Source of the DNA: Candidatus Uhrbacteria bacterium
GTDB taxonomy: Bacteria > Patescibacteriota > Patescibacteriia > JACQRZ01
Direction of reading: 5' to 3'
Assembly: GCA_016206155.1 (NCBI GenBank)
Contig: JACQSC010000004.1
Span: 217,910 to 281,909, forward strand
Length of the DNA: 64,000 bases
Made by a program: the position numbers and the translations under genes. This document shows, piece by piece, positions 22,876 to 61,369 of the stretch. Position 1 is the first letter of the stretch. Every line of letters begins with the position of its first letter. The notes beneath the pieces were generated by a model, which was not told the DNA's origin, searched no databases, and was given only the letters and a program-made list of their open reading frames with translations.

Positions 22876-22929
22876 ACAAGTCACGCCGAAGCTCGCCACC
22901 GCCGAAGGCTATGGCGCAGCGAAGGTGGA

Positions 22930-22959: not shown

Positions 22960-22975
22960 ATAAGAAGCATCTCTG

Positions 22976-23416: not shown

Positions 23417-23571
23417 TTGAATCTGGCGAATAACATTCACCAGATTCATCCCGCACATGGTTGCGGGATCCAGAAGCACTATCTGTAAAGACATTCATTC
23501 AATAGTAACACACCATAGGTCAGTAAAAAACGTTTCTTGCTAATTTCAATTAATATTAATAATAGAAAAAT

Positions 23572-24015: not shown

Positions 24016-24021
24016 CTATTC

Positions 24022-24462: not shown

Positions 24463-24503
24463 AGTACGACTTGCGCAGGCGGGCACATTTCATCGTCGTG
24501 GGG

Positions 24504-24821
24504 CCACCATTTATGGCAAACCTTAAACAGGAGATAAACGCAAAACTTCAAAACGCCGGAGAAGCGAATGCGGGGTATGCGAGCACAGATATCGCAGCAG
24601 TTATCGGCAACGTCGTTCTCACTCTTTTAACGATTCTTGGCGTTGTCTTTATTGTTCTCATTGTCTTTGCGGGATTTAGGTGGATGCTCGCGCAGGGCGA
24701 GGAGCAAAAAATTACCGAGGCCCGCAATCTCATCATTCATTCAATTATCGGACTTCTGGTCGTATTAGCCGCATATGCCATCAGTTACTTTGTCATCAGC
24801 GCACTCCAAAAAGCCGTCTAG
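24504..24821 (+). CDS. Pilin-like paralog P7 (core only, no obvious signal peptide)
   Basis: Core FAGFRWMLAQGEEQKITEARNLIIHSIIGLLVVLAAY. Start chosen at MANLKQ; the ORF track starts it at 24471. Confidence 0.5.
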   Translation, partial: PPFMANLKQEINAKLQNAGEANAGYASTDIAAVIGNVVLTLLTILGVVFIVLIVFAGFRWMLAQGEEQKITEARNLIIHSIIGLLVVLAAYAISYFVISALQKAV

Positions 24822-25230
24822 ACTAGAAGGGGTTGGTCGTACGCTTGCGCGACTTACTCTTGTTTCAAGCGCGCTTTCCTTCATCGTCGCGCTTCTTGTT
24901 GTAACCACGGAGACCCACGCGCTCACCGCGCCAATACTTGAGAAGCTGAATATCGCGCGCAACGTTGCCTGGGGGCCGACGGCGCAGCAGAGCATCGGCC
25001 TTATCGTCGGAAGCGTTATCCTTACAGCTCTTGGCTTGCTCGGCGTTATATTTGTGGTACTCTTAACCTATGGAGGGTTCCTGTGGCTTACGTCCGCCGG
25101 CGAGGAGGACAAGGCAAAAAAAGCGCGGGATCTCATTGTTAACTCACTGATAGGCATCTTCATCGTGATTGCGGCGTACAGCATCGGCTACTTTGTCCTT
25201 TCGCGATTGAGTGAGGCAGTAGTAACATGA
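24775..25230 (+). CDS. Pilin-like paralog P8
   Basis: Core TYGGFLWLTSAGEEDKAKKARDLIVNSLIGIFIVIAAY. It overlaps the end of P7, and I found no alternative in-frame start. Confidence 0.55.
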   Translation: MPSVTLSSAHSKKPSRLEGVGRTLARLTLVSSALSFIVALLVVTTETHALTAPILEKLNIARNVAWGPTAQQSIGLIVGSVILTALGLLGVIFVVLLTYGGFLWLTSAGEEDKAKKARDLIVNSLIGIFIVIAAYSIGYFVLSRLSEAVVT

Positions 25231-25628
25231 AAAAGTTTTTTCTCCTTTTTGGCATAGCTCTTTTTTTGGCCACGCCGACACTAGCATTCGGTGCAAGCGT
25301 TCTTGAGAATGCCCTGTACGCAGATCCGACCTCCGAAACCAATAAGCTGCTCAATAAATTTGTGCCCGGGGCAGGGGTGATAAAAACACCAGGTGTTATT
25401 GTCTTTGAAGTTCTTCAAATTATTTTGGGATTCCTTGGCATTGTCGGTGTTATCATGATGATTTATGCCGGTTTTCTCTGGCTCACCGCCGGTGGGGAAG
25501 AAGAGAAGGCAAAGCAAGGGCGCACCATTCTCTTTCAGGCAATTATTGGAATTCTTATTGTCTTGGCGTCGTATACTATTACCTATTTTATCATTGCGCA
25601 GCTTACCACCGCGGTTGTAAACCGATAG
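25227..25628 (+). CDS. Pilin-like paralog P9
   Basis: Core IYAGFLWLTAGGEEEKAKQGRTILFQAIIGILIVLASY. Confidence 0.65.
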   Translation: MKKFFLLFGIALFLATPTLAFGASVLENALYADPTSETNKLLNKFVPGAGVIKTPGVIVFEVLQIILGFLGIVGVIMMIYAGFLWLTAGGEEEKAKQGRTILFQAIIGILIVLASYTITYFIIAQLTTAVVNR

Positions 25629-25632
25629 GGCC

Positions 25633-26067
25633 ATGGGGAAAACACCTTTCATTTTTTTTTCACTCCTCCTCGCGTTGTTTTTTATCCTATCGCCGGTATT
25701 TGCGGAAAATCCGCTCCAGGCAGGCACCACGCGCACTACTATTCTTGGGAATTACGTCCACGGGGAAACTACTCAGTTTAATTGGTTTACAAAAGGATTT
25801 GGCGTCGATGATGTTTCCGATGTTGCGTGGCCCAATACCATTGCACGAAGGATAGTTAACATCGTGTTTAGTTTTTTGGGCATTGTTACCGTTATCGTTA
25901 TTATCTATGCCGGCTTCCTCTGGATAACCGCCGGCGGGGAAGAGGAAAAGGCAAAGCAGGGCCGCACGCTCCTATTCCAGGCGTTTATTGGTTTGGTTAT
26001 TATTTTATCAGCCTATCTTGTTTCCTACTTTACCATAGACCAGCTCGTTAAAGCGATTATGAAATGA
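25633..26067 (+). CDS. Pilin-like paralog P10
   Basis: Core IYAGFLWITAGGEEEKAKQGRTLLFQAFIGLVIILSAY. Confidence 0.65.
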   Translation: MGKTPFIFFSLLLALFFILSPVFAENPLQAGTTRTTILGNYVHGETTQFNWFTKGFGVDDVSDVAWPNTIARRIVNIVFSFLGIVTVIVIIYAGFLWITAGGEEEKAKQGRTLLFQAFIGLVIILSAYLVSYFTIDQLVKAIMK

Positions 26068-26474
26068 GGTATATTTTTACATTTTTTTTTGTTGCCATAA
26101 GCATTGCTATGATTGCGAGCTTGCCGACGTTTGCGGCAACCAGCCAATTGAAGGATGCCGCACTTTTTGGCGACAACTCTCAATTCAAAGAGTTTTTGGA
26201 AAAATGGGGCGTAACAAAGGATAAACCTCCCACAGAACCAGGCACAATTGCCCAGCGCATTGTTGCGGTTGTCTTTAGCTTTCTTGGCATTGTTGCCGTT
26301 ATTGTGATGATCTATGCGGGCTTTCTTTGGATGACCGCCGGCGGGGAGGAAGAGAAGGCAAAACAGGGCCGCACGCTCCTGTTTCAGGCGTTTATCGGAT
26401 CACTCATCGTGCTTGCGTCGTATTCAGTCACATATTTTGTACTATATATGCTCACTCTCTCAGTCTCTCCCTAG
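26064..26474 (+). CDS. Pilin-like paralog P11
   Basis: Core IYAGFLWMTAGGEEEKAKQGRTLLFQAFIGSLIVLASY. Confidence 0.65.
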   Translation: MRYIFTFFFVAISIAMIASLPTFAATSQLKDAALFGDNSQFKEFLEKWGVTKDKPPTEPGTIAQRIVAVVFSFLGIVAVIVMIYAGFLWMTAGGEEEKAKQGRTLLFQAFIGSLIVLASYSVTYFVLYMLTLSVSP

Positions 26475-26478: not shown

Positions 26479-26613
26479 GAATTACGAAACTCCTCTGTAT
26501 CGCGTATTGTCCATAGGGACCGGGTATTTTTCTGCTGAAAAATCCCTTAAACTCGGGCCGTCGCCCTCCGTATGTCCCTCTGGACAACAACCCGATACAG
26601 AGTTTCGTAATTC
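26479..26613. repeat. Structured intergenic element 'type A', copy 2
   Basis: Outer stem gaattacgaaactc/gagtttcgtaattc; inner stem ctctgtatcg/cgatacagag; core highly similar to 12733..12838. Confidence 0.6.
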
Positions 26614-28375
26614 AAGGCTCCCTAGGAATGAAAATAATCATTTCATCGTCGCGATAGGCCTCGCTAAATTCTGGAATTCCCAGAATTTTTTCTTGCAGCC
26701 CTTCATTGAGGTGCGTGATAACGACTGCCGACGGGTTAAATGTTGCGACAAGCTTCTCGGTTTCTGCGCGTTCGGCTCGAGGCGTGCAAGCAAAAAAGAG
26801 TGATCGCGCATCATGCTTTGAGTCTAAAGACGACGAGGCGGCGGTGCACAGCCCTCGATATCCGAACGTTTCTGCAAGATCATTGCCTTGCGAAAACGCG
26901 GTGTACTTCTTTGCTCGCTCAGGATTTTTTTCATACAAGAAGCGGGGATCAAGGCCGGAAACATAGCCATACTCGGGGGCATGATAGTAGAACAGGGGAA
27001 AGTCATCCCATCGATTGTGGACAATGCGTCCGCCCGCCGGAATGGTATCTGCAAGCCAGCGCATGCCGTTAGCATACTGAGAAAAACGATAGCCGCTTTG
27101 AAAATCAGCGGTAACGGACGAGATGCTTGCGCCGATAATTACGGGCGCCGCAAAGAAAAAATAAAGCACGATCATGCCGCGCGCCGTTCGCGGAGAGCGA
27201 AGCGATTCTTTGATATATCCCCAGAGGTGCAGAAAAAGTTCTTTTGAAAAGAGCGGGGCAAGGACAAGGCTTGAGAACAATGTCGCAAGCGGCGCGAAAT
27301 ATTCGCCATAGCGCCGCGATTTAAGCGTGAGCGCAAAAAAGAGAACGGTCATGACGAACATGAACCACTGCGCATAGGTGCGGCGCAAAGGGGGGGTGCG
27401 GAAGACCGCCACAAAGAGCCCGGGAAACAAGAAGGCGCAAAGGGAGAATACAAGCAGCATGAGTGTCGGCCCATGAAGCGGAATGAACGAGACGCCGGCA
27501 GAATACCATTCACTTCCGACCGGAACGTCGGTTAAGATGTTTACAATTGCGATCTTGAATGTTTGGATCCAGTAAAAGAAGACGTTGGTTGGAAAATACG
27601 GATTGATGATAAGACCGGCAAGAGCGCCGGAGAGCGATGCAAGAGGAAGTGCTACGTTTTTTTGTGAGAAAAGACGCGCAACGATATTGCAACTTGCAAC
27701 TTTTAATTTGCAACTTTCAGTCGGAGAGCCCTTAAAGTTTAAAGTAGAAAGTTGAAATTTTTTTGTATCAATTGATATGCGAAAATCAGAGAAGGCGCGC
27801 ACGATCCAGGCGATGGTCGCTGACAACGGGAGTAATGGCCATCCGGCGTAGAGCCAGACATAGAGGAATGAAAGGCCAAAAAGATGAGCCGGGCGATTTT
27901 TTAGGATTGCATAGATGCCTGCAAAAAAAACGATGAGCGAGACAGCGGGGATTTTTGCAAGGTTTATGCGGAAAAGAAACACGCTGTTAAGCGCCAAGAG
28001 CACAAGAAAAAAAAGAGCGCAGGAGCGCGACTGATGGGTGGCGCGGCGCAAGAGCCAGTAAAAGAATGCAAGAAACAGCGAGGCAAAAATAACCGTTGAA
28101 ATCTTGATGCCAATCAAGGGGTTGAAAAACGTAACAAAGGGAATAAGGAGAACGTGGTAGAGAAAATGATGATCAATAAAAACGTCGGACAGCGCTGTGT
28201 CGGGAAGGGCGGAAAAGGAAATAATCGGCCCGCGCACCATGTCTGCCGCGATGCGCGCATGATAAAATGAGTCTGGGTCTGGGAAGAATGGGTGTAGCTG
28301 GAGAAGAGAAAGTAACAGAATGCTGGCAAGAAATACCGGCACATACTCAAATTTTCGCAAAATATAAAGAATCAT
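26612..28375 (-). CDS. ArnT/PMT-like GT-C fold polytopic membrane protein
   Basis: DPDSFYHARIAADM loop motif after TM1 and more than 10 hydrophobic helices. Confidence 0.45.
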   Translation of the reverse strand: MILYILRKFEYVPVFLASILLLSLLQLHPFFPDPDSFYHARIAADMVRGPIISFSALPDTALSDVFIDHHFLYHVLLIPFVTFFNPLIGIKISTVIFASLFLAFFYWLLRRATHQSRSCALFFLVLLALNSVFLFRINLAKIPAVSLIVFFAGIYAILKNRPAHLFGLSFLYVWLYAGWPLLPLSATIAWIVRAFSDFRISIDTKKFQLSTLNFKGSPTESCKLKVASCNIVARLFSQKNVALPLASLSGALAGLIINPYFPTNVFFYWIQTFKIAIVNILTDVPVGSEWYSAGVSFIPLHGPTLMLLVFSLCAFLFPGLFVAVFRTPPLRRTYAQWFMFVMTVLFFALTLKSRRYGEYFAPLATLFSSLVLAPLFSKELFLHLWGYIKESLRSPRTARGMIVLYFFFAAPVIIGASISSVTADFQSGYRFSQYANGMRWLADTIPAGGRIVHNRWDDFPLFYYHAPEYGYVSGLDPRFLYEKNPERAKKYTAFSQGNDLAETFGYRGLCTAASSSLDSKHDARSLFFACTPRAERAETEKLVATFNPSAVVITHLNEGLQEKILGIPEFSEAYRDDEMIIFIPREP

Positions 28376-49893: not shown

Positions 49894-49965
49894 GCGCCCG
49901 TCGTTCAATGGATAGGACGCGTGACTTCGAATCACGCGATGGGGGTTCGATTCCCTCCGGGCGCA
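49894..49965 (+). tRNA. tRNA-Arg (anticodon TCG)
   Basis: Acceptor gcgcccg/cgggcgc, anticodon stem gtga/tcac with loop cuUCGaa, T-arm gguucgauucc. Confidence 0.7.
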
Positions 49966-50088
49966 AGAGAGCGAAGCGAACGGGAGCGCGCGGAAGCAAC
50001 AGCCAGTGGCTGTTGCGTGGGATGAGAACGGGTGGTGAGTGCGCGCAACCACCCAGGACAGCGAGCCTGCCTGCGGTAGGCAGGTCGG

Positions 50089-50736
50089 ATGCGAAGCGGC
50101 GATTCTCTCCGGGAGTTTAATGGCGCGCCACGTTTTCTTGGCACTGACGAGAAGGGGCGGGAAGTGCTTACGTTTATCAAGGGCGAAGTGCCGCACAGAG
50201 AAATAGATTGGACTGACGATCAGCTCATTGTTGTTGTTCAGATGCTTAAACGTTTTCACGATGCAACAGCGGGAAGCACACTTGCCGGCAATCATGAAGT
50301 TGTTTGCCATAATGACGCGGCTCCATGGAACATCGTACTGGACGATACTACGCCGGTTGCATTCATAGATTTTGACGGTGCGAGTCCGGGCAATCGCGCT
50401 GATGATCTGGCATATTTTCTGTGGACATTCCTTCGGCTGGGTAGTGACATTCCAGCCGACCAGCAAGCGCGAAAGATACGAACGCTCTGTGAAGAGTATG
50501 GATTTGCCGATGGGCAGGCATTATTTGAAGCGCTTATTAAACAGCAGAAAAAGATTTTAGCAAAAAGAGAACTATTGGCACAAGAAGCTCCTGACGAAGA
50601 GTCGCGTGAGTTTTCCAGGACACGAGCCACAAACATCCGTTCGGAAATTGAGTGGGTTCAATCACACAAGACATTGTTTGAAAATCTGTTTCATGGCCAA
50701 GGCACCCACCTGCCGGAAAGGCCCATTCGTCCTTGA
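50089..50736 (+). pseudogene. APH/choline-kinase-family phosphotransferase, C-terminal-lobe fragment
   Basis: Catalytic loop VCHNDAAPWNIVLDD and metal-binding FIDFDGAS are present, but the N-terminal nucleotide-binding lobe is missing. Confidence 0.4.
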
Positions 50737-50788
50737 CAGAAAATAATACTATTTGTATACTGTATATATAGTTTAGTAATACCCCGCT

Positions 50789-51967
50789 ATGATGTATCCA
50801 AGAACTATTTATTCCCGTATCAAGGCGCATCTCGGCACGAAGTCAGTTGTTGTCCTCACGGGAATGAGAAGGACCGGAAAGACGACTATTCTGAAACATA
50901 TTCTGTCCGAGATACGTTCGGATAATAAGGCATACTTTGATCTGGAAAAAATAAGCGACCGCGAATTTTTTGATCGCAAAAATTATGATTCCATACTGCT
51001 TGACCTCGCGCAACGAGGACTTGAGCCGAAAAAAAAGCTCTATCTTTGCATTGACGAAATACAGTTCCTGCCGAATATCACGAGTGTCATTAAATATCTC
51101 TATGATCACCATCGTATAAAATTTTTCGCTACCGGATCGAGCTCGTATTATTTGAAGAATCTGTTTACCCAATCGCTTGCCGGACGAAAAATTGTCTTTG
51201 AGCTTTTCCCGCTTGATTTTTGCGAGTTTCTCACCTTCAAGGATGTTCCCCATAGAGAAGGTTCGTTTCTTAAAAATGCCTTCTCGCGAGCAGAGTATGA
51301 ACGCCTTCGATTTTATTATGAGGAATTTATTGAGTTTGGCGGATTTCCGGAAGTTGTGTTGACAAAAAGCAAAGTTCTTAAAAAAGAGATGCTGAATGAT
51401 ATTATCAGCTCCTATATCAATATTGACATACAGTCGTTGGCCGATTTTCGGAAAGGCAAGGATATATACAATCTTATCAAAATGCTTGCATCTCGCTGTG
51501 CAACGCGGCTTGATTACAGCAAGCTTGCCAGTATGAGCGGTTTATCGCGCCCCACAGTTGAATCGTACGTAGATTTTTTTGAGAAGACCTACCTTATTAC
51601 CCGCGTCCCGGTCTTTACTCGCAATACAGACAGGGAAATCGTCAAGGCACGTAAGATCTTTTTTTGTGATAATGGTCTTATGGGTATTCTTGCACAAAAC
51701 AGCAGTGGAGTACTATTTGAAAATGCGCTTTTCAATCAGTTGCGCCACAAAGGCGAAGTGCGCTATTATGCGCTCAAGGATGGAAGCGAGATCGATTTTA
51801 TTCTTGATGGAACAATGGCTCTCGAGGCGAAGGAGTCGCCAACAGGCGTTGACCTGAATACGCTTGCACGGTTGAGCAGAATCGCGAAATTAAAAAAAAT
51901 CCATCTTGTTGGCCGTTACGAAGTACCGCGATTTAACGATTATATCTGGGGCGGAGCTATTCGATAG
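50789..51967 (+). CDS. AAA-family ATPase with a C-terminal DUF4143-like domain
   Basis: Walker A GMRRTGKTT. Confidence 0.6.
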   Translation: MMYPRTIYSRIKAHLGTKSVVVLTGMRRTGKTTILKHILSEIRSDNKAYFDLEKISDREFFDRKNYDSILLDLAQRGLEPKKKLYLCIDEIQFLPNITSVIKYLYDHHRIKFFATGSSSYYLKNLFTQSLAGRKIVFELFPLDFCEFLTFKDVPHREGSFLKNAFSRAEYERLRFYYEEFIEFGGFPEVVLTKSKVLKKEMLNDIISSYINIDIQSLADFRKGKDIYNLIKMLASRCATRLDYSKLASMSGLSRPTVESYVDFFEKTYLITRVPVFTRNTDREIVKARKIFFCDNGLMGILAQNSSGVLFENALFNQLRHKGEVRYYALKDGSEIDFILDGTMALEAKESPTGVDLNTLARLSRIAKLKKIHLVGRYEVPRFNDYIWGGAIR

Positions 51968-51971
51968 GTGT

Positions 51972-52427
51972 ATGCGAAGAATCAAACGAGAAATAGTGTC
52001 AGCGCTGATTTTTTCACAAGAAGGTAAACTCTTTCAAGGGAAAAAAGACCCGGCGAAAGGTGGCGTCTATAGTGATGCGTGGCATCTTCCGGGCGGAGGC
52101 ATTGAAGAAGGGGAGGACACTATAACTGCGCTCAAGCGAGAGATACTGGAGGAAACAGGAATTGATATTTCCCCATACCCCATTGAATTGATCGACGATG
52201 TCGGACGGGGCGAATCGGAAAAGACACTTGAAGATGGCGAGCAGGTGATATGCGAGATGGTATTTAATGTTTACGGGGTGACAATCTACGACAAGAAAGC
52301 AGATGAGATCGTCGTGAATTTGGACGGTGATCTGATCGAATACGCGTGGCGCAGCATTTCAGAATTGAAAAATATTGTGCTCACGCCACCGTCAAAAGAG
52401 CTATTTACTCGTCTTGGATATATATGA
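51972..52427 (+). CDS. NUDIX hydrolase
   Basis: Nudix box GGGIEEGEDTITALKREILEETGI. Start chosen at MRRIKREIV. Confidence 0.7.
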   Translation: MRRIKREIVSALIFSQEGKLFQGKKDPAKGGVYSDAWHLPGGGIEEGEDTITALKREILEETGIDISPYPIELIDDVGRGESEKTLEDGEQVICEMVFNVYGVTIYDKKADEIVVNLDGDLIEYAWRSISELKNIVLTPPSKELFTRLGYI

Positions 52428-53116
52428 TTGATCTTAAAGGAAAAGTCATTGTTATTACCGGCGCAAGCAGGGGGTTGGGTCGCGCACTTGCGAGAGTCCT
52501 TGCGCAAGAGGGTGCGCAATTAGTGCTTGCGAATCGTAATGTCGAAGAGTTGAATGAGGTTGCGCAAGAGACTGGCGGCATTGCGGTTGTTGCTGACGTT
52601 TCCGACGAAGCACAGGTACAGGGCCTTGCTCGTACCACAATAGAAAAATATGGACGCATCGATATCTGGATAAACAACGCCGGTATCTGGATGCCGCATG
52701 TGCCGATTGAGGAACTGAACTGGAAGCGTGTTCACGAGATTTTTGAAGTCAATGTTTTCGGTTTGATGTATGGGTCGAAGGAAGCGCTGGTACAGATGAA
52801 AAAACAACAATCGGGAACAATCATTAATATTATTTCTGTCCGTGGTGTTGACCCCCTTCCAAACGAAGCGGGGTATACGGCAAGTAAGTTCGCGGCAACA
52901 GGGTTTACGAAATGTTTGCGCCTCGAAGCCGAACCATTCGGTGTTCGTGTCTTTGGCATTTACCCCGGCGGCATGAAAACCCATCTCTTTGATGAAGCGC
53001 CGCGCGCAGAATACAACGAATTCATGGACCCTGCCGATGTCGCGCAAAAGATAATCAGCCACATCAAAGATGAGCATGCCGATCCCGATCTCATTCTCAA
53101 ACGCCCAAACACATAG
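52424..53116 (+). CDS. short-chain dehydrogenase/reductase (SDR)
   Basis: Motifs GKVIVITGASRGLGRALA, NNAG and YTASK. Start at MIDLKGKV, overlapping the NUDIX stop. Confidence 0.8.
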   Translation: MIDLKGKVIVITGASRGLGRALARVLAQEGAQLVLANRNVEELNEVAQETGGIAVVADVSDEAQVQGLARTTIEKYGRIDIWINNAGIWMPHVPIEELNWKRVHEIFEVNVFGLMYGSKEALVQMKKQQSGTIINIISVRGVDPLPNEAGYTASKFAATGFTKCLRLEAEPFGVRVFGIYPGGMKTHLFDEAPRAEYNEFMDPADVAQKIISHIKDEHADPDLILKRPNT

Positions 53117-53122: not shown

Positions 53123-53437
53123 ATGCCATCAGAAACGCGCGCATGCCAGAACCGTAATCATCAGTGCACGAACGCGTTCAAAGTGTTGAGCGTGGATCTT
53201 GATTTTTATCGAGCGCATCATCTGCCGATCCACAGACTATGCCCTAATTGCCGCCATTATGAACGTCTCGCAAAACGAGAACCGGTTCAGCTCTGGAGCC
53301 GAACCTGCATGTGCGCAGGCGCGCCTTCTCATGCGCATGGCACGTTGCCTTGTACCGTATCATTTCAAACGTCGTACGCACTCTATCGACCGGAGATTAT
53401 CTATTGCGAAGCGTGCTATCAGCAGGAGGTTGTGTAA
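53123..53437 (+). CDS. Cys-rich zinc-ribbon family, miniature member A (degenerate N-ribbon fused to the C-terminal module)
   Basis: Sequence ELxFYRAHHLPIHRLCPNCRHYERL...CTVSFQTSYALYRPEIIYCEACYQQEVV. Confidence 0.5.
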   Translation: MPSETRACQNRNHQCTNAFKVLSVDLDFYRAHHLPIHRLCPNCRHYERLAKREPVQLWSRTCMCAGAPSHAHGTLPCTVSFQTSYALYRPEIIYCEACYQQEVV

Positions 53438-53502
53438 GTATTTGACAATGTCGCACGGCGGCGTATACTATGGAGTGTTATTAATAATTAACAACAAAAC
53501 AT

Positions 53503-53769
53503 ATGGCACGTACCGTATTTACCACAACCATCTCGCTTCCTAAAACAATGGCCGCAACATTGAAGCAAATGGAGCGGGAAGAGGGACGTACAACCAGCGG
53601 GCTTATACAAGAAGCGCTTCGGCATTATGAGCGCTTTCATCGTTTCGAGAGTGGTCGGCGACACATAAGCTGGAACATCCTTAAAAAAGATCTTGCACGC
53701 ATTTCAAAGGCTGGGCGACAAAATGTCAACCTCGCGGATGCTATTGCACGAGATCGACTCTCTCATTAG
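53503..53769 (+). CDS. ribbon-helix-helix (CopG-like) antitoxin
   Basis: N-terminus TTISLPKTMAATLKQMEREEGRTTSGLIQEALRHY. Confidence 0.6.
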   Translation: MARTVFTTTISLPKTMAATLKQMEREEGRTTSGLIQEALRHYERFHRFESGRRHISWNILKKDLARISKAGRQNVNLADAIARDRLSH

Positions 53770-53778
53770 GGTAGCAGT

Positions 53779-54231
53779 ATGATGATATCACATCTGTACA
53801 TCCTTGACGCATCCGTTATTGTTAAGTTATTCAATAAGGAATGTGAAGAATCGACAGAGGAAGCCGAAGATATTCTCGATGCCGCGCACCGCGGCATTCA
53901 TCTTTTGGCGACATGCGATCTCGCCGTACATGAAGTATTCAATGTTCTGATCCGTTCGAAGGGGGTGAGAGGGCGCGATCTTGAACTTGCTGTTGAGCGA
54001 TTTTTTGCTCTTCCTTGCCAGCTTCTTCAAACAGACGCGTCGTGCGCGGCGCTCGCGGCGATGATTGCCACGGAATCAGGCATCACATTTTACGACGCCG
54101 TGTATTTGGCTCAGACGCAGAGGCGCAACGCGCCGCTTATCACTGCGAATCCCAAGCATCAACGATCGTCGCGGGGGATAGAGGTTATCTCACTCGATCA
54201 GTGGTTTTCATTCAAGCAAAAAACAGCATAG
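53779..54231 (+). CDS. PIN-domain (VapC-like) toxin
   Basis: Motifs YILDASVIVK, E at aa 52 in HEVFNV, ITFYDAVYLAQT. Confidence 0.6.
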   Translation: MMISHLYILDASVIVKLFNKECEESTEEAEDILDAAHRGIHLLATCDLAVHEVFNVLIRSKGVRGRDLELAVERFFALPCQLLQTDASCAALAAMIATESGITFYDAVYLAQTQRRNAPLITANPKHQRSSRGIEVISLDQWFSFKQKTA

Positions 54232-54246
54232 CGAGGAGATGACGCT

Positions 54247-54726
54247 ATGAACAGTGAACAAAGAATCTGCCAGAACTGTAAACAATCCTTCATTATAGAA
54301 TCGGAGGACTTTATGTTTTACGAAAAGATGAAAGTCCCGCCGCCGACGTGGTGTCCCGAGTGCACGAATGTAAGTTTTTCATTGAATCTTCAAAATTGCA
54401 TGGACTGTTTTGGGTGCGTGAATTTGAAGAATAAACAGCACTGTATTTTTAATGAGCAGTATACGAAAGAAGAATACGAACAAAAGATGAAGGAATTTGA
54501 TTTCGGCTCCTACTCGTTTGTTCAAGAGATGAAAAAGAAGGTTTCTGAACTTTCATTGAAGTATCCACGACGATATGTTGAGGGGCTGAATAATGAACAG
54601 GTGGTCGGTGACTACATTTTTAATTCAAAGAATGTAGCACAGTGCACCGAAGTGACCGATTGCGAGAACTGCAAACCACCCATTGAAATATCAAAAGTGT
54701 TACCTATGTATGCGTCTTGTACATGA
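54247..54726 (+). CDS. Cys-rich zinc-ribbon family, truncated member B (N-terminal part only)
   Basis: Sequence CQNCKQSFIIESEDFMFYEKMKVPPPTWCPEC...CFGCVNLKNKQHCIFNEQYTKEEYE. Confidence 0.55.
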   Translation: MNSEQRICQNCKQSFIIESEDFMFYEKMKVPPPTWCPECTNVSFSLNLQNCMDCFGCVNLKNKQHCIFNEQYTKEEYEQKMKEFDFGSYSFVQEMKKKVSELSLKYPRRYVEGLNNEQVVGDYIFNSKNVAQCTEVTDCENCKPPIEISKVLPMYASCT

Positions 54727-54765
54727 TTTTGACAAACGCACAATGCTTTGTTAGTATAGAGCAAT

Positions 54766-55023
54766 ATGGAACAGAGATTGCTCAATTACGTTGTTATATT
54801 GGAGTCCGATATTCGAACGGGGAGCGATGAGCCCTGCTATAGTATTTATTGCCCCTCGTTGGGACTCTCTGATAGCGGTGATACTATTGAGGATGCGCTT
54901 GAAAATATGAAAGACCTTATTGTATTTCACCTCGATTCTCTTCGCAAAGAGCAGGAACCGATCCCTACGGCGGGTATTGCTCAACCCCTTATTGCAACAG
55001 TGCAAGTCGCCTATCCGAGTTAA
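54766..55023 (+). CDS. hicB: HicB-family antitoxin
   Basis: Motif YCPSLGLSDSGDTIEDALENMKDLIVFHLD. Confidence 0.6.
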   Translation: MEQRLLNYVVILESDIRTGSDEPCYSIYCPSLGLSDSGDTIEDALENMKDLIVFHLDSLRKEQEPIPTAGIAQPLIATVQVAYPS

Positions 55024-55027
55024 TGGT

Positions 55028-55249
55028 ATGCCGAAACTCGCAGAGGTTATGCCAAAGGACCTTTTGAAAGCTCTTCTTAAGGGTGGTTTTGTCATTACAA
55101 ATCAATCCGGAAGTCATGTGCGTCTCCATCATTTTGATGGACGAAAGACGACCCTTGCGGTTCACGCAAAACCGCTTCCGAAAGGAACGCTCGCGTCGAT
55201 TCTCCGTCACACCCAGATTTCCAGAGAAGAACTTGAACATTTATTATGA
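55028..55249 (+). CDS. hicA: HicA-family toxin
   Basis: Sequence MPKDLLKALLKGGFVITNQSGSHVRLHHFDGRKTTLAVHAKPLPKGTLASIL. Confidence 0.6.
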   Translation: MPKLAEVMPKDLLKALLKGGFVITNQSGSHVRLHHFDGRKTTLAVHAKPLPKGTLASILRHTQISREELEHLL

Positions 55250-57039
55250 AGTCAGCAGAAGATAGTATCTGCCAGAACTGTAAACAATCCTTCATTATAG
55301 AACCGGAGGATTTTGCGTTTTATGAAAAGATGAACGTCCCGCCGCCGACGTGGTGCCCCGAGTGCAGGCTCATTCGGCGACTGGCGTTTGATAATCTGCG
55401 AACCATCTATAGCGGCGGGAGGTGCGTAAAATGCGAAAAGGGGATTATTACATCTTTGCCGCCAAACACTGAGCGGACCGTCTATTGCAACACTTGCTGG
55501 TGGGGTGATTCGTGGGATGGTTTTGAGTATGGTCGGGATGTTGATTTTGATAAACCATTTCTCCAGCAAGTGAAAGAGCTCATGGCTGTTGTTCCGCAGA
55601 TGGCGCGCGCAAACGACGAGCCGACACTGGTAAACTCTGACTACACCATGAACGTTGGACATCTCAAAAATTGCTATCTCGTATTTCATGCTGATTTTGA
55701 TGAGGATTGCGCTTATTGCGACACCATAGATGGTGTGAAGGATTCTCTTGATTGCAGCCGATTGAGCGGATGCGAATTATGCTATGAGTGTGTCAATCTG
55801 AAAACCTGCTACAAGGCGGTTACTTGCGTGGATTGTGAGAACTCAAATGACATTATGTTCTGCCGTGATTGCATCGGGTGTACGAATTGCTTTGGTTGTG
55901 TTGGGTTGCGCAATAAAGAGTATTGTTATTTCAATGAACAGCTTACCCGCGAAGAGTACGAGAAGCGGATGGCGGAATTTCGTCACGGATCATATACGGC
56001 AATGGAAGAGATGAGAGGACGAGCCCGGGAATTTTGGGAAACCATGCCGCGCCGGTATATGCACGGGAAAAACAATGAAGACGTTTCTGGCGACTATATT
56101 GATCGCTCAAAAAATACACACCATTCATTTCAAGTTTCGCAATGCGAGGACAGCAAGTTCATTGCCATTGTCGGTATCCAACCGACAAAGGATTCCTATG
56201 ATTACTATTCTTGGGGAAGCGGCGTTTCGCGTATCTATGAATGCGCCGCGGTTGGCGAAAATGCCGACAGGGTGAAATTTACATTTATGTCATGGCCGTC
56301 GTGCAGTGAGGTTGAGTATTCGATGTATGCAGTGAGCTCATCAAACTGTTTTGGGTGTGTTGGGATACGGAACAAGAACTATTGCATTCTCAACAAGCAA
56401 TATACGAAAGAAGAATATGAGATGCTGGTGCAAAAAATAAAACACCACATGAACGATATGCCCTATATTGATGCGGTTGGCCGCGAATATCGGTATGGAG
56501 AATTTTTTCCGACAGAACTGTCGGCATTTGCCTATAACGAGAGCCGGGTACAAGAATATTTTCCGCTCACAAAAGAAGAAGCGCTTGAAAAGGGGTATGC
56601 GTGGCGCGATAGAGTAGGGGGAACTGTTTTACCAACCATTCATTGCACTGGTTTGCCTGATGACATTCACGATGTTCCCGATACGATAACCAAGGAGATC
56701 ATTGAATGTACGCATATCGAGCAGTGCAACCATGAATGCAAGCTGGTATTCAAGGTCATAGCGCAAGAGCTCGCGTTTTACAAAAAAATGAACATCCCTC
56801 TCCCGCGCCTTTGTTTTAATTGCCGCTACGCAGAACGTATCAAGCTTCGCAACCCCATGAAACTCTGGTTGGGCCAGTGCCAATGCGGGGGAGAAAAGTC
56901 GCAGAGCGGTGTCTATAAAAATACTGCACAACACACTCACGGCGCGTCACCATGCGCTGTGACATTTCAGACATCATATGCCCCGGACAGGCCGGACATT
57001 GTCTACTGCGCCGAGTGCTATCAGCAGGAGGTTCTTTGA
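55246..57039 (+). CDS. Cys-rich zinc-ribbon family, full-length member C (597 aa)
   Basis: N-terminus CQNCKQSFIIEPEDFAFYEKMNVPPPTWCPEC. Internal Cys-periodic repeats with two CFGCVGxRNKxYC units. C-terminus ELAFYKKMNIPLPRLCFNC...CAECYQQEVL. Confidence 0.6.
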   Translation: MKSAEDSICQNCKQSFIIEPEDFAFYEKMNVPPPTWCPECRLIRRLAFDNLRTIYSGGRCVKCEKGIITSLPPNTERTVYCNTCWWGDSWDGFEYGRDVDFDKPFLQQVKELMAVVPQMARANDEPTLVNSDYTMNVGHLKNCYLVFHADFDEDCAYCDTIDGVKDSLDCSRLSGCELCYECVNLKTCYKAVTCVDCENSNDIMFCRDCIGCTNCFGCVGLRNKEYCYFNEQLTREEYEKRMAEFRHGSYTAMEEMRGRAREFWETMPRRYMHGKNNEDVSGDYIDRSKNTHHSFQVSQCEDSKFIAIVGIQPTKDSYDYYSWGSGVSRIYECAAVGENADRVKFTFMSWPSCSEVEYSMYAVSSSNCFGCVGIRNKNYCILNKQYTKEEYEMLVQKIKHHMNDMPYIDAVGREYRYGEFFPTELSAFAYNESRVQEYFPLTKEEALEKGYAWRDRVGGTVLPTIHCTGLPDDIHDVPDTITKEIIECTHIEQCNHECKLVFKVIAQELAFYKKMNIPLPRLCFNCRYAERIKLRNPMKLWLGQCQCGGEKSQSGVYKNTAQHTHGASPCAVTFQTSYAPDRPDIVYCAECYQQEVL

Positions 57040-57092
57040 CTCTATTTTGATATTTTGACATGAAGGCTCATTCATGATAGCGTTTAGGTAGT

Positions 57093-57362
57093 ATGAGGCT
57101 ATCAATAAACAAATATATTGTCTCTGATTCCGACATTTGTCATGGAAAACCAACGTTTAAAGGAACGCGGGTTATGGTGTGGCAGATTCTTTCCATGCTC
57201 TCCCACGGCGAATCAACACAGAATATTCTTGAGGAGCATCCATCCTTGACAACACGACATATTCAGGCAGCGCTTGATTATGCTTCATCCCTTACCCAAG
57301 AACATTATGTCATCGTCAACACGCAAGCCCCGGCTTTTGCTGGACGAGAACGTACGGTTTGA
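57093..57362 (+). CDS. DUF433-type small protein (antitoxin-like)
   Basis: Motif GKPTFKGTRVMVWQILSMLSHGESTQNILEEHPSLTTRHIQAALDYA. Confidence 0.55.
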   Translation: MRLSINKYIVSDSDICHGKPTFKGTRVMVWQILSMLSHGESTQNILEEHPSLTTRHIQAALDYASSLTQEHYVIVNTQAPAFAGRERTV

Positions 57363-57660
57363 CCTCTATCGGTATGTGCAGAACGAGGGATATGATGTTG
57401 TCCGGTCCGCAATTTCGACAAGCGATCACCTTCTCGCCAAAAGAACAATAAAGGAGCGCAGAATTCTTGTTACGAACGATCAAGACTTTTTATGGTATCC
57501 GCGCCATACTATTTTTTCTGTTATTATTTTGCGGATACCACAATATGACGGAAGCGCTCTTCTTTCTTCATTCTCGAAACTCATGGCGGAGGAAAAGAAA
57601 TTTCAGGGTTTTGCCTTTATTCTTTATCCCGGTTCGTGGGATAAGGAGAAGTTAGCGTAA
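57307..57660 (+). CDS. DUF5615/Mut7-C-like PIN-related protein (toxin-like partner of DUF433)
   Basis: Motifs LLLDENV and RILVTNDQDF. The start is uncertain and overlaps the upstream gene. Confidence 0.45.
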   Translation: MSSSTRKPRLLLDENVRFDLYRYVQNEGYDVVRSAISTSDHLLAKRTIKERRILVTNDQDFLWYPRHTIFSVIILRIPQYDGSALLSSFSKLMAEEKKFQGFAFILYPGSWDKEKLA

Positions 57661-57678
57661 TACGATTGAGCGTGTTAT

Positions 57679-59475
57679 ATGTCACCAGAGACTCTGACCT
57701 GCCAAAACTGCAAATCCCCCTTCACTATCGAGCCGGAGGACTTTGCATTTTATAAAAAAATAAAAGTCCCAGCCCCGACGTTTTGTCCGGTTTGCCGTCT
57801 GCAGAGGAGGCATACATGGCGCAATATGCGTTCACTCTATCGGCGGCCGTGTGATCTGTGTAAACAAGACAAGATTGGTATGTATGCACCGGACAAGCCG
57901 CACATAGCATTCTGTCCGCGCTGTTGGTGGTCTGATGGATGGGACGGCTTTGACTATGGTTGCGCGTTTGATTTTTCGCGAAGTTTTTTTGTGCAGTTTG
58001 CCGAGCTCTTAAGGCGCGTGCCCCTTATCGCTCGCTCCGTGTATGAAGATACGCTCGTCAACTCGGAGTATACAAACATGGCGCATTCACTGAAGGACTG
58101 CTATCTTGTGTTTTTGAGTGTGACGTGCGAGCGAAGCGCGTATTGCCAATCAATTGATGGCGGGAAGGACTGCCTCGATGTTTCGTGGTCCAACGATGTC
58201 CAGCTTTGCTATGAAGGAATCAATCTCCATAATTGTTATAAGGTGTTTTACTCAAAAGATTGCCTGTCCTGCTCGCATTCCTATTTTCTGAATGATTGCG
58301 TTAACTGCAGCAACTGTTTTGGGTGCGCGGGATTGCGCAACAAACAGTATCATATTTTTAACGAACCGTATTCACCGGAACAGTACGCAGATAAATTAAA
58401 GGAGATTGGGTTTCAATCAGAGAAATACAGTTCGGTTAAAGAATTCAAGCAGAGAGCCAAAGATTTGTGGTCGTGCTATCCGGTAAAGTATGTTCATGGG
58501 TCGAACAATCAAGATGCTTCGGGCGACTACATCTATAACGCAAAAAATACCAAACATTCTTTTTTCGTAAACGCTATCGAGGACTCAAAATTCTGCTCCC
58601 TGTTGATGTTTGGCAAACCGGTACGAGAATCCTACGACTGGACACAGTACGGTGATAATGGAGAACTGATGTACGAGGTGGCGCAGTCCGGCGGCGGAGT
58701 CTACAATAATCATTTTGGCTGGATGATCTTGCGCGGATGCCGCGATGTTGAGTACTGCGCCCTCATGAATAATTGTTCGGATTGTTTTGGATGTGTGGGG
58801 CTGAAGAATAAAAAGTTTTGCATTTTTAACACACAATACACAGAGGATGAGTATCGAATAATGCGCAAACGCATCATTGTGCAGATGGCAGAGATGCCCT
58901 ACATTGATGCGAAGGGGAGGATGTATCGGTATGGTGAATTCTTTCCACCAGAGTTGTCGCCTTTTGCATACAACGAGTCCGCTGCGCAAGAGGAATTTCC
59001 GCTCACTGAAAAAGAAGCAGGAGACCGAGGATTTTTGTGGAGAGACGAGAAACAAGACGTATCATATACGATAACAAAACAGGCGCGTGATCTCCCTGAC
59101 GCGTCGCACGAAAATGGTGATTTTACAAAAGATATTATTGGATGCGAGTCGTGCGGCAAAGGGTACCGCTTTGTAAAGATGGAGCTTGCTTTTTATCGCG
59201 ATCATCACATTCCCTTGCCGCGAACATGTTCGAACTGCCGGTATCAAGAACGATTAGAGTGGCGCGGCCGTACGCTCCTGACAGAGCGCCAGTGCCAGTG
59301 CGGGGGAGCAAAGTCGCAGAACGGCATGTACAAAAATACGGCGCAACATGCACATGGAGGCGCGCCTTGTCCAATGACATTTCAAACTGCATACGCCAAG
59401 CCTGAAGGCAGGGCAAGCACCCTGCGACCCGAGATTGTCTACTGCGCCGAGTGCTATCAGGGTGAGGTCATTTGA
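57679..59475 (+). CDS. Cys-rich zinc-ribbon family, full-length member D (598 aa)
   Basis: Same architecture as C; CFGCAGLRNKQY and CFGCVGLKNKKFC; C-terminus IVYCAECYQGEVI. Confidence 0.6.
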   Translation: MSPETLTCQNCKSPFTIEPEDFAFYKKIKVPAPTFCPVCRLQRRHTWRNMRSLYRRPCDLCKQDKIGMYAPDKPHIAFCPRCWWSDGWDGFDYGCAFDFSRSFFVQFAELLRRVPLIARSVYEDTLVNSEYTNMAHSLKDCYLVFLSVTCERSAYCQSIDGGKDCLDVSWSNDVQLCYEGINLHNCYKVFYSKDCLSCSHSYFLNDCVNCSNCFGCAGLRNKQYHIFNEPYSPEQYADKLKEIGFQSEKYSSVKEFKQRAKDLWSCYPVKYVHGSNNQDASGDYIYNAKNTKHSFFVNAIEDSKFCSLLMFGKPVRESYDWTQYGDNGELMYEVAQSGGGVYNNHFGWMILRGCRDVEYCALMNNCSDCFGCVGLKNKKFCIFNTQYTEDEYRIMRKRIIVQMAEMPYIDAKGRMYRYGEFFPPELSPFAYNESAAQEEFPLTEKEAGDRGFLWRDEKQDVSYTITKQARDLPDASHENGDFTKDIIGCESCGKGYRFVKMELAFYRDHHIPLPRTCSNCRYQERLEWRGRTLLTERQCQCGGAKSQNGMYKNTAQHAHGGAPCPMTFQTAYAKPEGRASTLRPEIVYCAECYQGEVI

Positions 59476-59521
59476 CAAGGGGTATTTGTGTGCTACGGTA
59501 AAAGTATAAAAAAGTATCTCT

Positions 59522-59797
59522 ATGTCAAACGATTTGATAAAAAATGCGGACATTCAGCACATTGCTGATCAGGGAGCGAAAATCTACGGAGGAATTAAAG
59601 ATCAATACGACCCCAAAGAAAGAGGAAAGTTTCTCGCTATTGATATAGAAAGCAGAGACGTGTATCTCGGTGAGACAAGCGCCGAAGCTCTTGAACGGGC
59701 GCTCGAACAGCACCCACACAAGATTTTTTATGTTGTCAAAATCGGGTATGATGTTGCCGAGACAGTTGCGCATTCATTTTCGAAGACACGACAATGA
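59522..59797 (+). CDS. small protein (DUF5678-like), upstream partner of the retropepsin-like gene
   Basis: 91 aa, GAKIYGG...RGKFLAIDIESRDVYLGE, overlaps the next gene by 4 nt. Confidence 0.35.
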   Translation: MSNDLIKNADIQHIADQGAKIYGGIKDQYDPKERGKFLAIDIESRDVYLGETSAEALERALEQHPHKIFYVVKIGYDVAETVAHSFSKTRQ

Positions 59798-60162
59798 TTA
59801 CGGGATCTTTTGTTGACAATACGCCGTTTGTTCGTATTGCGATAGGATGGGGGCGTTCAGTGCAGACGCCCCTTGTTGTTTTAGATACTGGTTTAACTGG
59901 TGACCTTCAGGTTACCCCAAAGATAGCGCGCGAGCTTGACCTTGAGGTTATTGGCGCCACAGAAGCACGGATTGCAAGCGGTGATGTTGTTCGTGTTCCT
60001 GTTGCTATCGCACTTGCCGCCATGGAGGGCATGACGCAAACGATTCAGGTCATCATCTCCGAAAGCATTCCATTGGTTGGGATTGGCTTTCTTTCAAAAT
60101 TTGAATACAAAGCGATTCTTGACTGTAAGGATAAAACAGTTGTTTTGGAACGAAAAAAATAG
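59794..60162 (+). CDS. retropepsin-like (clan AA) aspartic protease
   Basis: Active-site D-T-G within VVLDTGLTGD; 122 aa. Confidence 0.6.
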   Translation: MITGSFVDNTPFVRIAIGWGRSVQTPLVVLDTGLTGDLQVTPKIARELDLEVIGATEARIASGDVVRVPVAIALAAMEGMTQTIQVIISESIPLVGIGFLSKFEYKAILDCKDKTVVLERKK

Positions 60163-60169
60163 TATGCCG

Positions 60170-60523
60170 TCCGAGATTCGCACGTGCCAAAACTGCAAAC
60201 AGTCCTTCGTTGTCTAGCCGGAGGATTTTGCATTTTATGAAAAAATGAACGTTCCTCCGCCGACGTGGTGTTCCGAGTGTCGTCACAAGTCTCGATTTGC
60301 CATGTGCACGCCATACAAGCTTTGGTCTCGGCAGTGCATGTGTGATCGTGCGGAGCACGATCACCGCGCCATAGTCGCGCCAGAGCTTGGGCGGCGGCCG
60401 ACGGAGGCGGGTCAATGTTCCACCACTTTTCAGACCGCATACGCCCCGCCTGAAGGCCGGGCAAGCACCCTCCGACCCGAAATCATTTACTGCGAGGAGT
60501 GCTATCAGAAGGAGATTGTTTAG
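60170..60523 (+). pseudogene. Cys-rich zinc-ribbon family, miniature member E with an in-frame TAG
   Basis: MPSEIRTCQNCKQSFVV(TAG at 60215..60217)PEDFAFYEKMNVPPPTWCSEC...IIYCEECYQKEIV. Confidence 0.5.
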
Positions 60524-60584
60524 CGGCATTGACAGGTGTATTACATAGTACTATAATTGTAATACATACTATTTACTCTCGTGT

Positions 60585-60854
60585 ATGCGTAAAGTTATAG
60601 CAATTTCTCTGCCGGAAGCGACCGCTCGCCAGGTAGACCGTATCGTCGTGAAGGAGGGATATACAAGCACAAGCGAATTATTTCGCGATCTTCTGCGTGG
60701 ACGGGGAGCGTATACGGATACACGGGGACGCGAAAAAATGTGCGTTATGCCATTTCGCGCAGATGCGTTCATTCGAGCAGTGAAGCGACATGCGCAGAAA
60801 GGAGCGCCAAAAACACTTTCTCACAACCACGATCGTTATCTCTATGGAAAATGA
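60585..60854 (+). CDS. ribbon-helix-helix antitoxin
   Basis: N-terminus VIAISLPEATARQVDRIVVKEGYTSTSELFRDLLR. Confidence 0.55.
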   Translation: MRKVIAISLPEATARQVDRIVVKEGYTSTSELFRDLLRGRGAYTDTRGREKMCVMPFRADAFIRAVKRHAQKGAPKTLSHNHDRYLYGK

Positions 60855-61257
60855 ATTCCTTGCCGACGCTGATTTTTTGATTGCATTGTATAGTAAAAAT
60901 GACACGAATCATGCGAAGGCGCTGAAGTTGCTCGAACGCGTTGCTGATTTTTTTCGCCCGCGAATTGTTATATCCATGCTTGTCTACGGCGAGGTTGTGA
61001 CAATTCTTTCACAACGTGTTGCGCAAAAAACCGCGCACCATTTCATGGATGACAGTGAGCAACAGGGAATCACGGTGATGGCTATTACTCAAGAGATATT
61101 TCGCTTTGCGCAGGATATTTTTCGCAGGCAGCGATCAAAAAATGTCAGCTTTGTTGATGCGACGAATATCGCACTCATGCAGAATAAATCCTTCATGGGT
61201 CTCTTGAGCTTTGATCGCGATTATCTTAAAAATGGCATTCGCCTTTTCAATCCTTGA
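60847..61257 (+). CDS. PIN-domain (VapC-like) toxin
   Basis: Motifs FLADADFLIALY and SFVDATNIALMQ. Confidence 0.55.
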   Translation, partial: ENEFLADADFLIALYSKNDTNHAKALKLLERVADFFRPRIVISMLVYGEVVTILSQRVAQKTAHHFMDDSEQQGITVMAITQEIFRFAQDIFRRQRSKNVSFVDATNIALMQNKSFMGLLSFDRDYLKNGIRLFNP

Positions 61258-61296: not shown

Positions 61297-61369
61297 GCGC
61301 CCATAGCTCAGTTGGTAGAGCTGCTCGCTCTTAACGAGAAGGTCGCAGGTTCGAGTCCTGCTGGGCGCA
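61297..61369 (+). tRNA. tRNA-Lys (anticodon CTT)
   Basis: Acceptor gcgccca/tgggcgc, anticodon loop cuCUUaa, close to the canonical tRNA-Lys D- and T-arms. Confidence 0.75.

Follow-up and report, generated by a model that had tools for sequence, protein, structure and literature searches.

A same-strand array of cysteine-rich paralogs interleaved with toxin-antitoxin cassettes in a Candidatus Uhrbacteria genome

Organization of the array

The window analyzed in this study is a 64,000-nt stretch of a contig from a Candidatus Uhrbacteria metagenome-assembled genome (MAG), and window positions are used throughout. It contains an array of genes encoding one cysteine-rich (Cys-rich) protein family, interleaved with small genes of toxin-antitoxin (TA) type. 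The open reading frame (ORF) list and tblastn together recovered exactly five family members, all on the plus strand from 53123 to 60523, and tblastn with the copies found no further member elsewhere in the 64 kb. An initial annotation, made from the sequence letters, had reported five such same-strand copies, two of them full-length, in a locus ending at a tRNA-Lys gene; tblastn, the family hidden Markov model (HMM), and the position of the tRNA bore this out. The copies and the tRNA genes on either side are listed below, where numbers beginning with L denote array loci from other genomes.

49894..49965, plus strand: tRNA-Arg(tcg), conserved left-hand landmark of the variable interval, at the same position in L086, L090, and L092
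53123..53437, plus strand: c1, 104-aa mini copy (HMM positions 490-595; 124.7 bits)
54247..54726, plus strand: c2, 159-aa broken copy (HMM positions 1-302 with an internal gap; 193.5 bits)
55246..57039, plus strand: c3, intact, 597 aa, NCBI HY623_03450 (100% match; 971.5 bits)
57679..59475, plus strand: c4, intact, 598 aa (844.8 bits)
60164..60523, plus strand: c5, pseudogene, approximately HMM positions 1-45 and 513-595 (73.2 bits, for the second ORF only)
61297..61369, plus strand: tRNA-Lys(ctt), conserved right-hand border of the array locus, at the same position in L086 and L090

Copies c3 and c4 matched the full length of the family profile (alignment A1, 43 full-length homologs, 595 positions), including all 53 invariant residues; both sequences belong to A1 and thus contributed to the columns counted as invariant. 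Each carried two CFGC..LRNK units, as initially described. Because they were only 48% identical to each other, c3 and c4 are old paralogs. Orthologs of c3 were present in L086, L089, L090, L092, and L093 at 65-78% identity, and the ortholog of c4 was copy 5 of L086 (76% identity).

The other three copies were deletion remnants of paralogs whose counterparts in relatives are full-length. In c1, about 10 N-terminal residues ran directly into the C-terminal module, made up of ribbon A', a Cys/His cluster, and ribbon B'; over 96 aa, the protein shared 81% identity with the C-terminal end of copy 2 (582 aa) of L092. A tblastn extension of c1 homology upstream into the SDR gene was rejected as spurious, given an intervening stop codon and marginal similarity. 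In c2, the N ribbon was joined to the first CFGC/solenoid unit with HMM positions ~40-195 deleted, and the copy ended near HMM position 302 with no C tail; its middle part was 65-68% identical to the full-length L090 copy 3 and L086 copy 2. In c5, the N ribbon was fused to the C-terminal tail, an in-frame TAG stood at 60215-60217 where the family has Glu, and no close ortholog was found among the relatives' copies. Reassignment of TAG, or read-through, was considered and rejected: TAG also terminates the nearby SDR, PIN1, and protease genes, so that the codon is a true stop and c5 a pseudogene. The initial statement that every copy has both the N ribbon and the C tail held for three of the five, c5 counting only if its stop is ignored; c1 kept only the ~10 N-terminal residues, and c2 lacked the tail. 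The internal deletions in c1, c2, and c5 all preserved the reading frame, an outcome with a chance probability of roughly 1 in 27; production of some mini forms, most notably c1, may therefore continue. Mini copies of the C-terminal part were likewise seen in L007, L025/L086, and L073.

Interleaved toxin-antitoxin cassettes

Pairs of adjacent, small, co-oriented genes with recognized antitoxin and toxin folds were found four times by Pfam, as ribbon-helix-helix (RHH) plus PIN (twice), HicB plus HicA, and DUF433 plus DUF5615/Mut7-C. Five TA-like pairs had been counted in the initial annotation; the fifth consisted of a 91-aa ORF with no Pfam, NCBIfam, or PADLOC match and a 122-aa clan-AA protease candidate with no Pfam match, whose TIGR03698 score of 31.7 bits fell below the cut-off of 57. 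These genes and the promoter-like sites near them were as follows.

53442..53469, plus strand: sigma-70-like promoter, TTGACA-16-TATACT (11/12 match), in the 65-nt gap upstream of RHH antitoxin 1
53503..53769, plus strand: RHH (CopG-type) antitoxin 1 (PF01402, E 4e-6), 77% identical to its L089 ortholog
53779..54231, plus strand: PIN-domain toxin 1 (PF01850, E 4e-14), 73% identical to its L089 ortholog
54729..54757, plus strand: sigma-70-like promoter, TTGACA-17-TAGTAT with an extended -10 TG (10/12 match), upstream of HicB
54766..55023, plus strand: HicB-like antitoxin (PF15919, E 8e-5, below the gathering score)
55028..55249, plus strand: HicA toxin (PF07927, E 5e-15, over residues 46-100 of a long ORF listed from 54920; probable ATG at 55028)
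57093..57362, plus strand: DUF433, antitoxin-like (PF04255, E 2e-22)
57274..57660, plus strand: DUF5615/Mut7-C PIN-like putative toxin (PF18480, E 2.5e-9), start uncertain, ORF overlapping DUF433
59522..59797, plus strand: 91-aa protein, putative partner of the protease
59794..60162, plus strand: 122-aa clan-AA (retropepsin-like) aspartic protease candidate with a DTG motif (TIGR03698, E 1.5e-7)
60529..60557, plus strand: perfect sigma-70 consensus, TTGACA-17-TATAAT (12/12 match), upstream of RHH antitoxin 2
60585..60854, plus strand: RHH antitoxin 2 (PF01402, E 2e-5), with orthologs in L086 and L090 at 54-56% identity
60790..61257, plus strand: PIN toxin 2 (PF01850, E 5e-11), likely start 60844, with orthologs in L086 (68% identity) and L090 (57%)

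The distance from the preceding stop codon to the start of the Cys-rich gene was -4 to +18 nt at all five junctions, in agreement with the earlier description of copies overlapping the preceding gene or lying within 18 nt of it, and the distance from the stop of a copy to the start of the next antitoxin gene was 39-65 nt. TA genes were locally dense, with four to five pairs in 8 kb, compared with a single TA-type ORF when 31 small ORFs from the remaining ~56 kb were scanned. That single ORF, within window positions 1-53000, matched YafQ/ParE toxin models. In a pattern search of 8.6 kb, the four sigma-70-like matches of highest score (10-12 of 12 positions) fell at three sites, all in the short gaps upstream of RHH1, HicB, and RHH2, and an 8-nt palindrome, GTATTACA/TGTAATAC, overlapped the promoter-like site of RHH2. 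The search found no consensus promoter in the gaps that precede DUF433 and the 91-aa ORF.

Synteny in close relatives

In the close Uhrbacteria-type relatives, the array was found at a fixed site, between tRNA-Arg/NUDIX/SDR and tRNA-Lys/PolX. The backbone shared with loci carrying c3 orthologs ran from a polysaccharide-synthesis gene through SpoIID, a PilT-like ATPase, tRNA-Arg(tcg), a few variable genes, and the array to tRNA-Lys(ctt) and PolX. Between these borders the relatives held 2 to 8 full copies with differing TA families at differing junctions, and the synteny comparison that the initial annotation had proposed therefore supported its suggestion of a variable island.

L086, L087, and L088: five full copies in direct succession, a C-terminal mini copy of 60 aa, an RHH-PIN pair, tRNA-Lys, PolX
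L089: a CopG/BrnA-like gene, the ortholog of c3, orthologs of the first RHH-PIN pair of the window (77% and 73% identity), another copy
L090: eight full copies, with BrnT/BrnA after copy 2 and an ortholog of the second RHH-PIN pair of the window after copy 3, directly before the c3 ortholog
L092 and L093: further PIN, BrnA-like, and RHH pairs between full and truncated copies

The RHH-PIN pair of L086-L088 was orthologous to the second pair of the window (54% and 68% identity). Directly upstream of the c3 ortholog, four states were found in five genomes: HicBA in the window, a CopG/BrnA-like antitoxin in L089, RHH-PIN in L090, and NUDIX in L086 and L092. The TA load was clade-specific and positionally fluid.

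A 202/203-aa gene lay inside the arrays of L086 (18852-19463) and L090 (10991-11599); its two versions were 33% identical, had no Pfam or NCBIfam match, and were absent from the window. The 91-aa and 122-aa ORFs were considered as a split version of this gene and rejected, as no similarity was found.

The Cys-rich protein family

A word-indexed search returned at least 7,980 relatives of ~595 aa and ~47-50% identity across many Patescibacteria lineages. Nearly all were named hypothetical, one JGI entry being labelled "Zn ribbon nucleic-acid-binding protein." An exhaustive HMMER search yielded 2,211 clusters (50% identity) at E<=1e-30 and 5,256 at E<=1e-3, and a genome scan yielded at least 593 loci, the best 80 of which were labelled Patescibacteria or unclassified except for two MAGs (Gammaproteobacteria and Bdellovibrionales). 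The family is very large, uncharacterized, and restricted to Patescibacteria. Literature searches that used the Pfam/TIGR identifiers, or that looked for tandem Cys-rich families in Patescibacteria, turned up no paper about it.

The initial annotation had not recognized the family, and the database searches likewise returned no Pfam, NCBIfam, PADLOC, or PDB match beyond a weak treble-clef resemblance. Pfam and NCBIfam gave only sub-threshold treble-clef matches for the five copies, with best scores of 21.5 against 24 bits (PF13451, c4), 10.8 against 27 (PF23477, c5), and 11.3 against 36 (TIGR04272, c5). In PADLOC-DB 2.0, c3, c4, the 91-aa ORF, and the 122-aa ORF had no match at E<=0.01, and the A1 profile matched nothing at E<=1 among all PDB sequences.

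Profile comparison and modelling gave a domain order of ribbon A, ribbon B, solenoid/CFGC unit 1, unit 2, a conserved YGEFFP region, ribbon A', a Cys/His cluster, and ribbon B'. Profile-profile alignment with hhalign indicated internal duplication of ribbon A (9-56) and A' (498-542; 98.9%), of ribbon B (60-86) and B' (570-593; 94%), and of the two solenoid/CFGC units (99.7%). The AlphaFold2 model of c3 (pLDDT 86, pTM 0.87) showed stacked beta-coils with structural matches to solenoid proteins, placing the protein in the beta-solenoid fold class; the C-terminal half modelled alone had no structural match. A hydropathy scan predicted no membrane helix. The Cys-rich protein is probably a multi-zinc, cytoplasmic binding or scaffold protein.

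Family-wide gene neighborhood

A broad sample of 82 non-redundant loci from other Patescibacteria genomes was used to determine the usual setting of the family. At least two same-strand copies were present in 59 loci and at least four in 30, with a maximum of 10. As 124 of the 181 copy-to-copy junctions (~69%) were shorter than 150 bp, most arrays have no room for intervening genes; the family normally occurs as an unbroken run of paralogs on one strand, with as many as 10 copies. When every ORF in the 49 larger gaps was compared with Pfam, 12 TrwB/VirD4/TraG/DUF87-type ATPases, 7 CutA1, 3 HicA, and 1 AbiEii were found, and 2-3 of the 3 HicA genes had HicB/UPF0150-type partners. TA genes were present in ~4 of the 49 larger gaps. 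The 134 ORFs directly flanking the arrays included 14 ATPases, 3 CutA1, and 2 PemK, the latter being the only TA genes, and the remainder were unrelated housekeeping genes. The tally of neighbors suggested by the initial annotation gave a divided result: the TA association was conserved among the immediate relatives but lacking family-wide.

The recurrent neighbors were instead ATPases. An ATPase HMM identified 49 such genes in 30 of the 82 loci, 46 of them on the same strand as the array and 39 within 500 bp of a copy. Types of ~490 aa and ~660-770 aa occurred together in 15 loci and often bracketed the array (L023, L036, L054, L078, and L047); neither common type had a predicted membrane helix. 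The long type contained a CxxC-x17-CxxC finger identified as zf_Tbcl_2 (49-57 bits on PF23477), which was homologous to ribbon B of the Cys-rich family (hhalign 96.4%, E 1.4e-9). In PADLOC, the neighboring ATPases of other genomes matched only generic HerA/mad8 ATPase models.

Long VirD4-like ATPases adjoined the arrays of L023 (17846-20146), L036 (2854-4986), and L001 (11787-13628). They were built of an ATPase domain, the finger, and a Pro/Lys/Glu-rich low-complexity tail of 250-300 aa, which ended in EVPEDVLRK[VI]LE in both sequences inspected (L023 and L036). A third type, in L005 (11822-14188; 788 aa), had DUF8128 and one N-terminal membrane helix.

A 2025 survey of 2,918 Patescibacteria genomes reported 5,713 VirD4-type homologs, 148 of them near virB4 (PMC12102498). 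These "orphan" homologs of type IV coupling proteins number ~2 per genome and lie mostly far from virB4, and the authors of the survey raised the possibility of exaptation (PMC12102498). No paper linking VirD4-like ATPases to the Cys-rich family was found. From gene neighborhood, the most likely setting of the family is a zinc-dependent binding or adaptor role beside soluble VirD4/HerA-type ATPases and CutA1. Because the ATPases recur beside the arrays and the long type shares the finger domain, a joint system with the ATPases is the best lead. Tentatively, the Cys-rich proteins might be working partners (cargo, adaptors, or regulators) of the approximately two orphan soluble VirD4-like ATPases per genome, forming with CutA1 an undescribed, Patescibacteria-specific, ATPase-driven system, a proposal that we regard as possible rather than likely. 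If it were true, diverged paralog arrays could supply alternative specificities, and one array of the Uhrbacteria-type clade, lying between two tRNA genes, would have turned into a variable island loaded with TA cassettes.

Other features of the window

The rest of the window encodes rpoB, rpoC, ftsK, recA, and similar genes. Between tRNA-Arg(tcg) and c1 (49894-53116) lay a 215-aa ORF, an AAA_14/DUF4143 ATPase, NUDIX, and SDR; in relatives, the interval from tRNA-Arg to the first copy held PemK and NUDIX, 2'-5' RNA ligase and NUDIX, or an SDR fragment. AAA_14/DUF4143 ATPases also adjoined arrays in other lineages. A 388-aa protein with a T4SS_pilin domain (18954-20120) and six small ORFs matching PF18895 T4SS_pilin made up a VirB2-like pilin gene array at 18954-26471, of the kind reported for Patescibacteria (PMC12102498). 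The sole transposase found in the window was an IS200-like Y1 transposase at 20212-20895 (PF01797, E 1e-18), ~32 kb upstream of the Cys-rich array. At 12859-15846 on the minus strand, a 995-aa protein with six PA14 and three GLEYA domains is likely a surface adhesin or carbohydrate-binding protein. Two ORFs, at 9998-11722 (plus strand, 574 aa) and 26612-28375 (minus strand, 587 aa), had no Pfam match even at E<=1; they were compared with the Cys-rich family, whose members are of similar length, and rejected as unrelated.

Interpretation of the locus

We consider it likely that the region represents the remains of a same-strand paralog array that promoter-bearing TA cassettes colonized and possibly stabilized, rather than a three-gene defense module. 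Two paralogs, c3 and c4, remain intact; c1, c2, and c5 were cut down by internal deletions that lie within the ribbon-coding ends or run between them. The junctions between copies are occupied by type II TA cassettes of unrelated families, and the downstream Cys-rich copy would be read through from an autoregulated TA promoter. Such cassettes may be selfish addiction modules that accumulate in a dispensable, recombination-prone array and may guard it from deletion, by analogy with chromosomal integrons, in which TA cassettes kill cells when cassette excision is too frequent (PMC13108822). They would not be mechanistic partners of the Cys-rich protein.

Several points weigh against this interpretation. 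TA pairs were present in or beside the array at all five distinct loci of the clade, and the uniformly tight spacing from toxin to copy could mean functional coupling rather than mere tolerance. Promoter-like sites numbered 16 in total, compared with 13 +/- 3.5 in shuffled controls, so there was no excess and only the placement of the best matches was suggestive. The stabilizing role that the TA cassettes may have is drawn by analogy. The contig belongs to a MAG in which c2 and c3 share a 36-nt exact repeat, making a mis-join possible. As to the wider setting, the ATPase HMM found no VirD4-like ATPase in the window or in L086, L089, L090, L092, and L093, and with neither such an ATPase nor CutA1 in the window or in the syntenic loci of the clade, the ATPase link cannot be shown for this array.

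The initial annotation had described a repeating unit of antitoxin, toxin, and Cys-rich protein, possibly a new defense or addiction system with exchangeable TA pairs. On such a reading, each Cys-rich protein would serve the preceding TA pair as a third component, be it a sensor, regulator, chaperone, or effector. The constant order of promoter, antitoxin, toxin, and Cys-rich gene, the short spacing at all five junctions, equally tight junctions in L089 and L090, and the presence of TA pairs throughout the clade would all be expected of such a unit. Three of the five "third components" here are, however, deletion remnants or pseudogenes, and at least six unrelated toxin types were encountered: PIN, HicA, DUF5615, and the candidate clan-AA protease in the window, BrnT in relatives, and PemK in the vicinity. 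No TA genes separate the five copies of L086, most junctions family-wide leave no room for a gene, and TA genes occurred in only ~4 of 49 gaps and 2 of 134 flanking ORFs. A true three-gene system is improbable, since the supposed third gene is frequently disrupted, lies behind TA pairs of many unrelated types, and occurs mostly without TA; the conserved functional unit was not upheld. Neither was the proposal of a new defense system, given the lack of a PADLOC match and recurrent neighbors that are VirD4/TrwB/HerA-like ATPases and CutA1.

A recombination-driven cassette array bears on the movement of the cassettes and is compatible with the preferred reading of a colonized paralog array. In such an array, the ribbon-coding ends would serve as homology arms and segments running from one 3' end through a TA pair to the next 5' end would be swapped, duplicated, or deleted through homologous or microhomology recombination, giving an integron-like island without an integrase. 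The first 109 coding nt of c2 and c3 were 91% identical, including the 36-nt exact run, where other copies were ~70% identical, and this identity stopped exactly at the c2 deletion junction. Likewise, the 3' 106 nt of c5 were 78% identical to the 3' end of c4, with an insertion common to both, and c1 and c5 were fusions (N ribbon to C ribbon) of the homologous ribbons A and A'. Orthologous RHH-PIN pairs stood beside different paralogs in different genomes, and RecA is encoded in the window. These traces of recombination agree with the initial idea that ribbon-encoding ends act as recombination boundaries, but the five post-copy gaps had no shared repeats, hairpins, or attC-like sites, no recombinase or integrase was found among the genes between the two tRNA genes, and the locus did not have the makeup of an integron or attC cassette array. 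At the amino-acid level, ribbons A and A' are only ~35% identical, less than classical homologous recombination would need; because TA modules are generally mobile, no special mechanism is called for, and the evidence comes from a handful of MAG contigs. We regard this account as plausible, though less likely than not. The same MAG origin and the 36-nt repeat in c2 and c3, adjoining the c2 junction, might instead indicate that the truncated copies and their juxtaposition with TA genes are chimeric metagenomic joins across repeated paralog segments. Independent assemblies of relatives speak to the contrary: L086-L088 (contigs from at least six samples) have the 60-aa mini copy, L093 has truncated copies, and TA pairs separate copies in L089, L090, L092, and L093. 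The junctions of c1, c2, and c5 were all in frame, and c1 and c2 were not built from pieces of c3 or c4, because they were only 42-48% identical to every other copy in the window. An assembly artefact is thus very improbable.

Significance

The TA cassettes are ordinary in themselves, and their pile-up in a paralog array without integron machinery modestly extends the idea that TA modules settle in or stabilize unstable arrays. The larger point is the family, with thousands of members in many Patescibacteria lineages and as many as 10 successive copies. VirD4-like ATPases, the role of which in Patescibacteria is recognized as unsettled (PMC12102498), repeatedly bracket its arrays. Together with this ATPase neighborhood, the family could be a new kind of system, and the ATPase link is a more interesting lead than the TA association. 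It offers a concrete, testable hypothesis on biology that is widespread in a whole bacterial radiation.

Comparison with known systems

At the level of the protein, the beta-solenoids form the relevant fold class, with Cys-rich or regular members such as insect antifreeze proteins, curli CsgA, left-handed beta-helix acyltransferases, and bactofilin. Probable treble-clef zinc fingers of the CxxC-x17-CxxC type (zf_Tbcl PF13451, zf_Tbcl_2 PF23477, and TIGR04272) resemble ribbon A, by its sub-threshold zf_Tbcl match (21.5 against 24 bits), and ribbon B, by its alignment with the zf_Tbcl_2 finger of the long ATPases. They are, however, small generic domains that account for less than 20% of the 595 aa and carry no information on the solenoid core or the conserved YGEFFP region, and no curated threshold was reached. 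The ATPases beside the arrays resemble the type IV coupling proteins VirD4, TrwB, and TraG in matching TrwB_AAD_bind, T4SS-DNA_transf, TraG-D_C, and DUF87. They differ in that the ~490-aa and ~660-770-aa types have no predicted membrane helix, and a role of the Cys-rich proteins as substrates is unsupported.

At the level of gene order, the VirB2 pilin arrays of Patescibacteria are likewise recurrent tandem arrays of 2-11 strongly diverged paralogs (PMC12102498), one of them in the window at ~19-26 kb. The pilins are small secreted membrane proteins, whereas the Cys-rich proteins have ~595 aa and no predicted membrane helix. Tripartite toxin-antitoxin-chaperone (TAC) systems similarly have a third gene directly downstream of a type II TA pair, probably co-transcribed with it. 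In TAC, a SecB-like chaperone co-evolves with one TA family, whereas members of the Cys-rich family follow TA pairs of at least five unrelated types, are frequently disrupted, and mostly stand without TA; co-occurrence with a TA pair holds only in the close clade, with changing TA families.

Sedentary chromosomal integrons, such as the Vibrio superintegron (Richard et al. 2024, PMC13108822), differ from the present locus in that neither an integrase nor attC is found here, the elements are paralogs of one family, and stabilization is suggested by analogy. As in those integrons, several unrelated type II TA modules are carried in a long same-orientation array, at least three of them here with a promoter-like site of their own; the array varies among relatives, and its deletions would plausibly be penalized.

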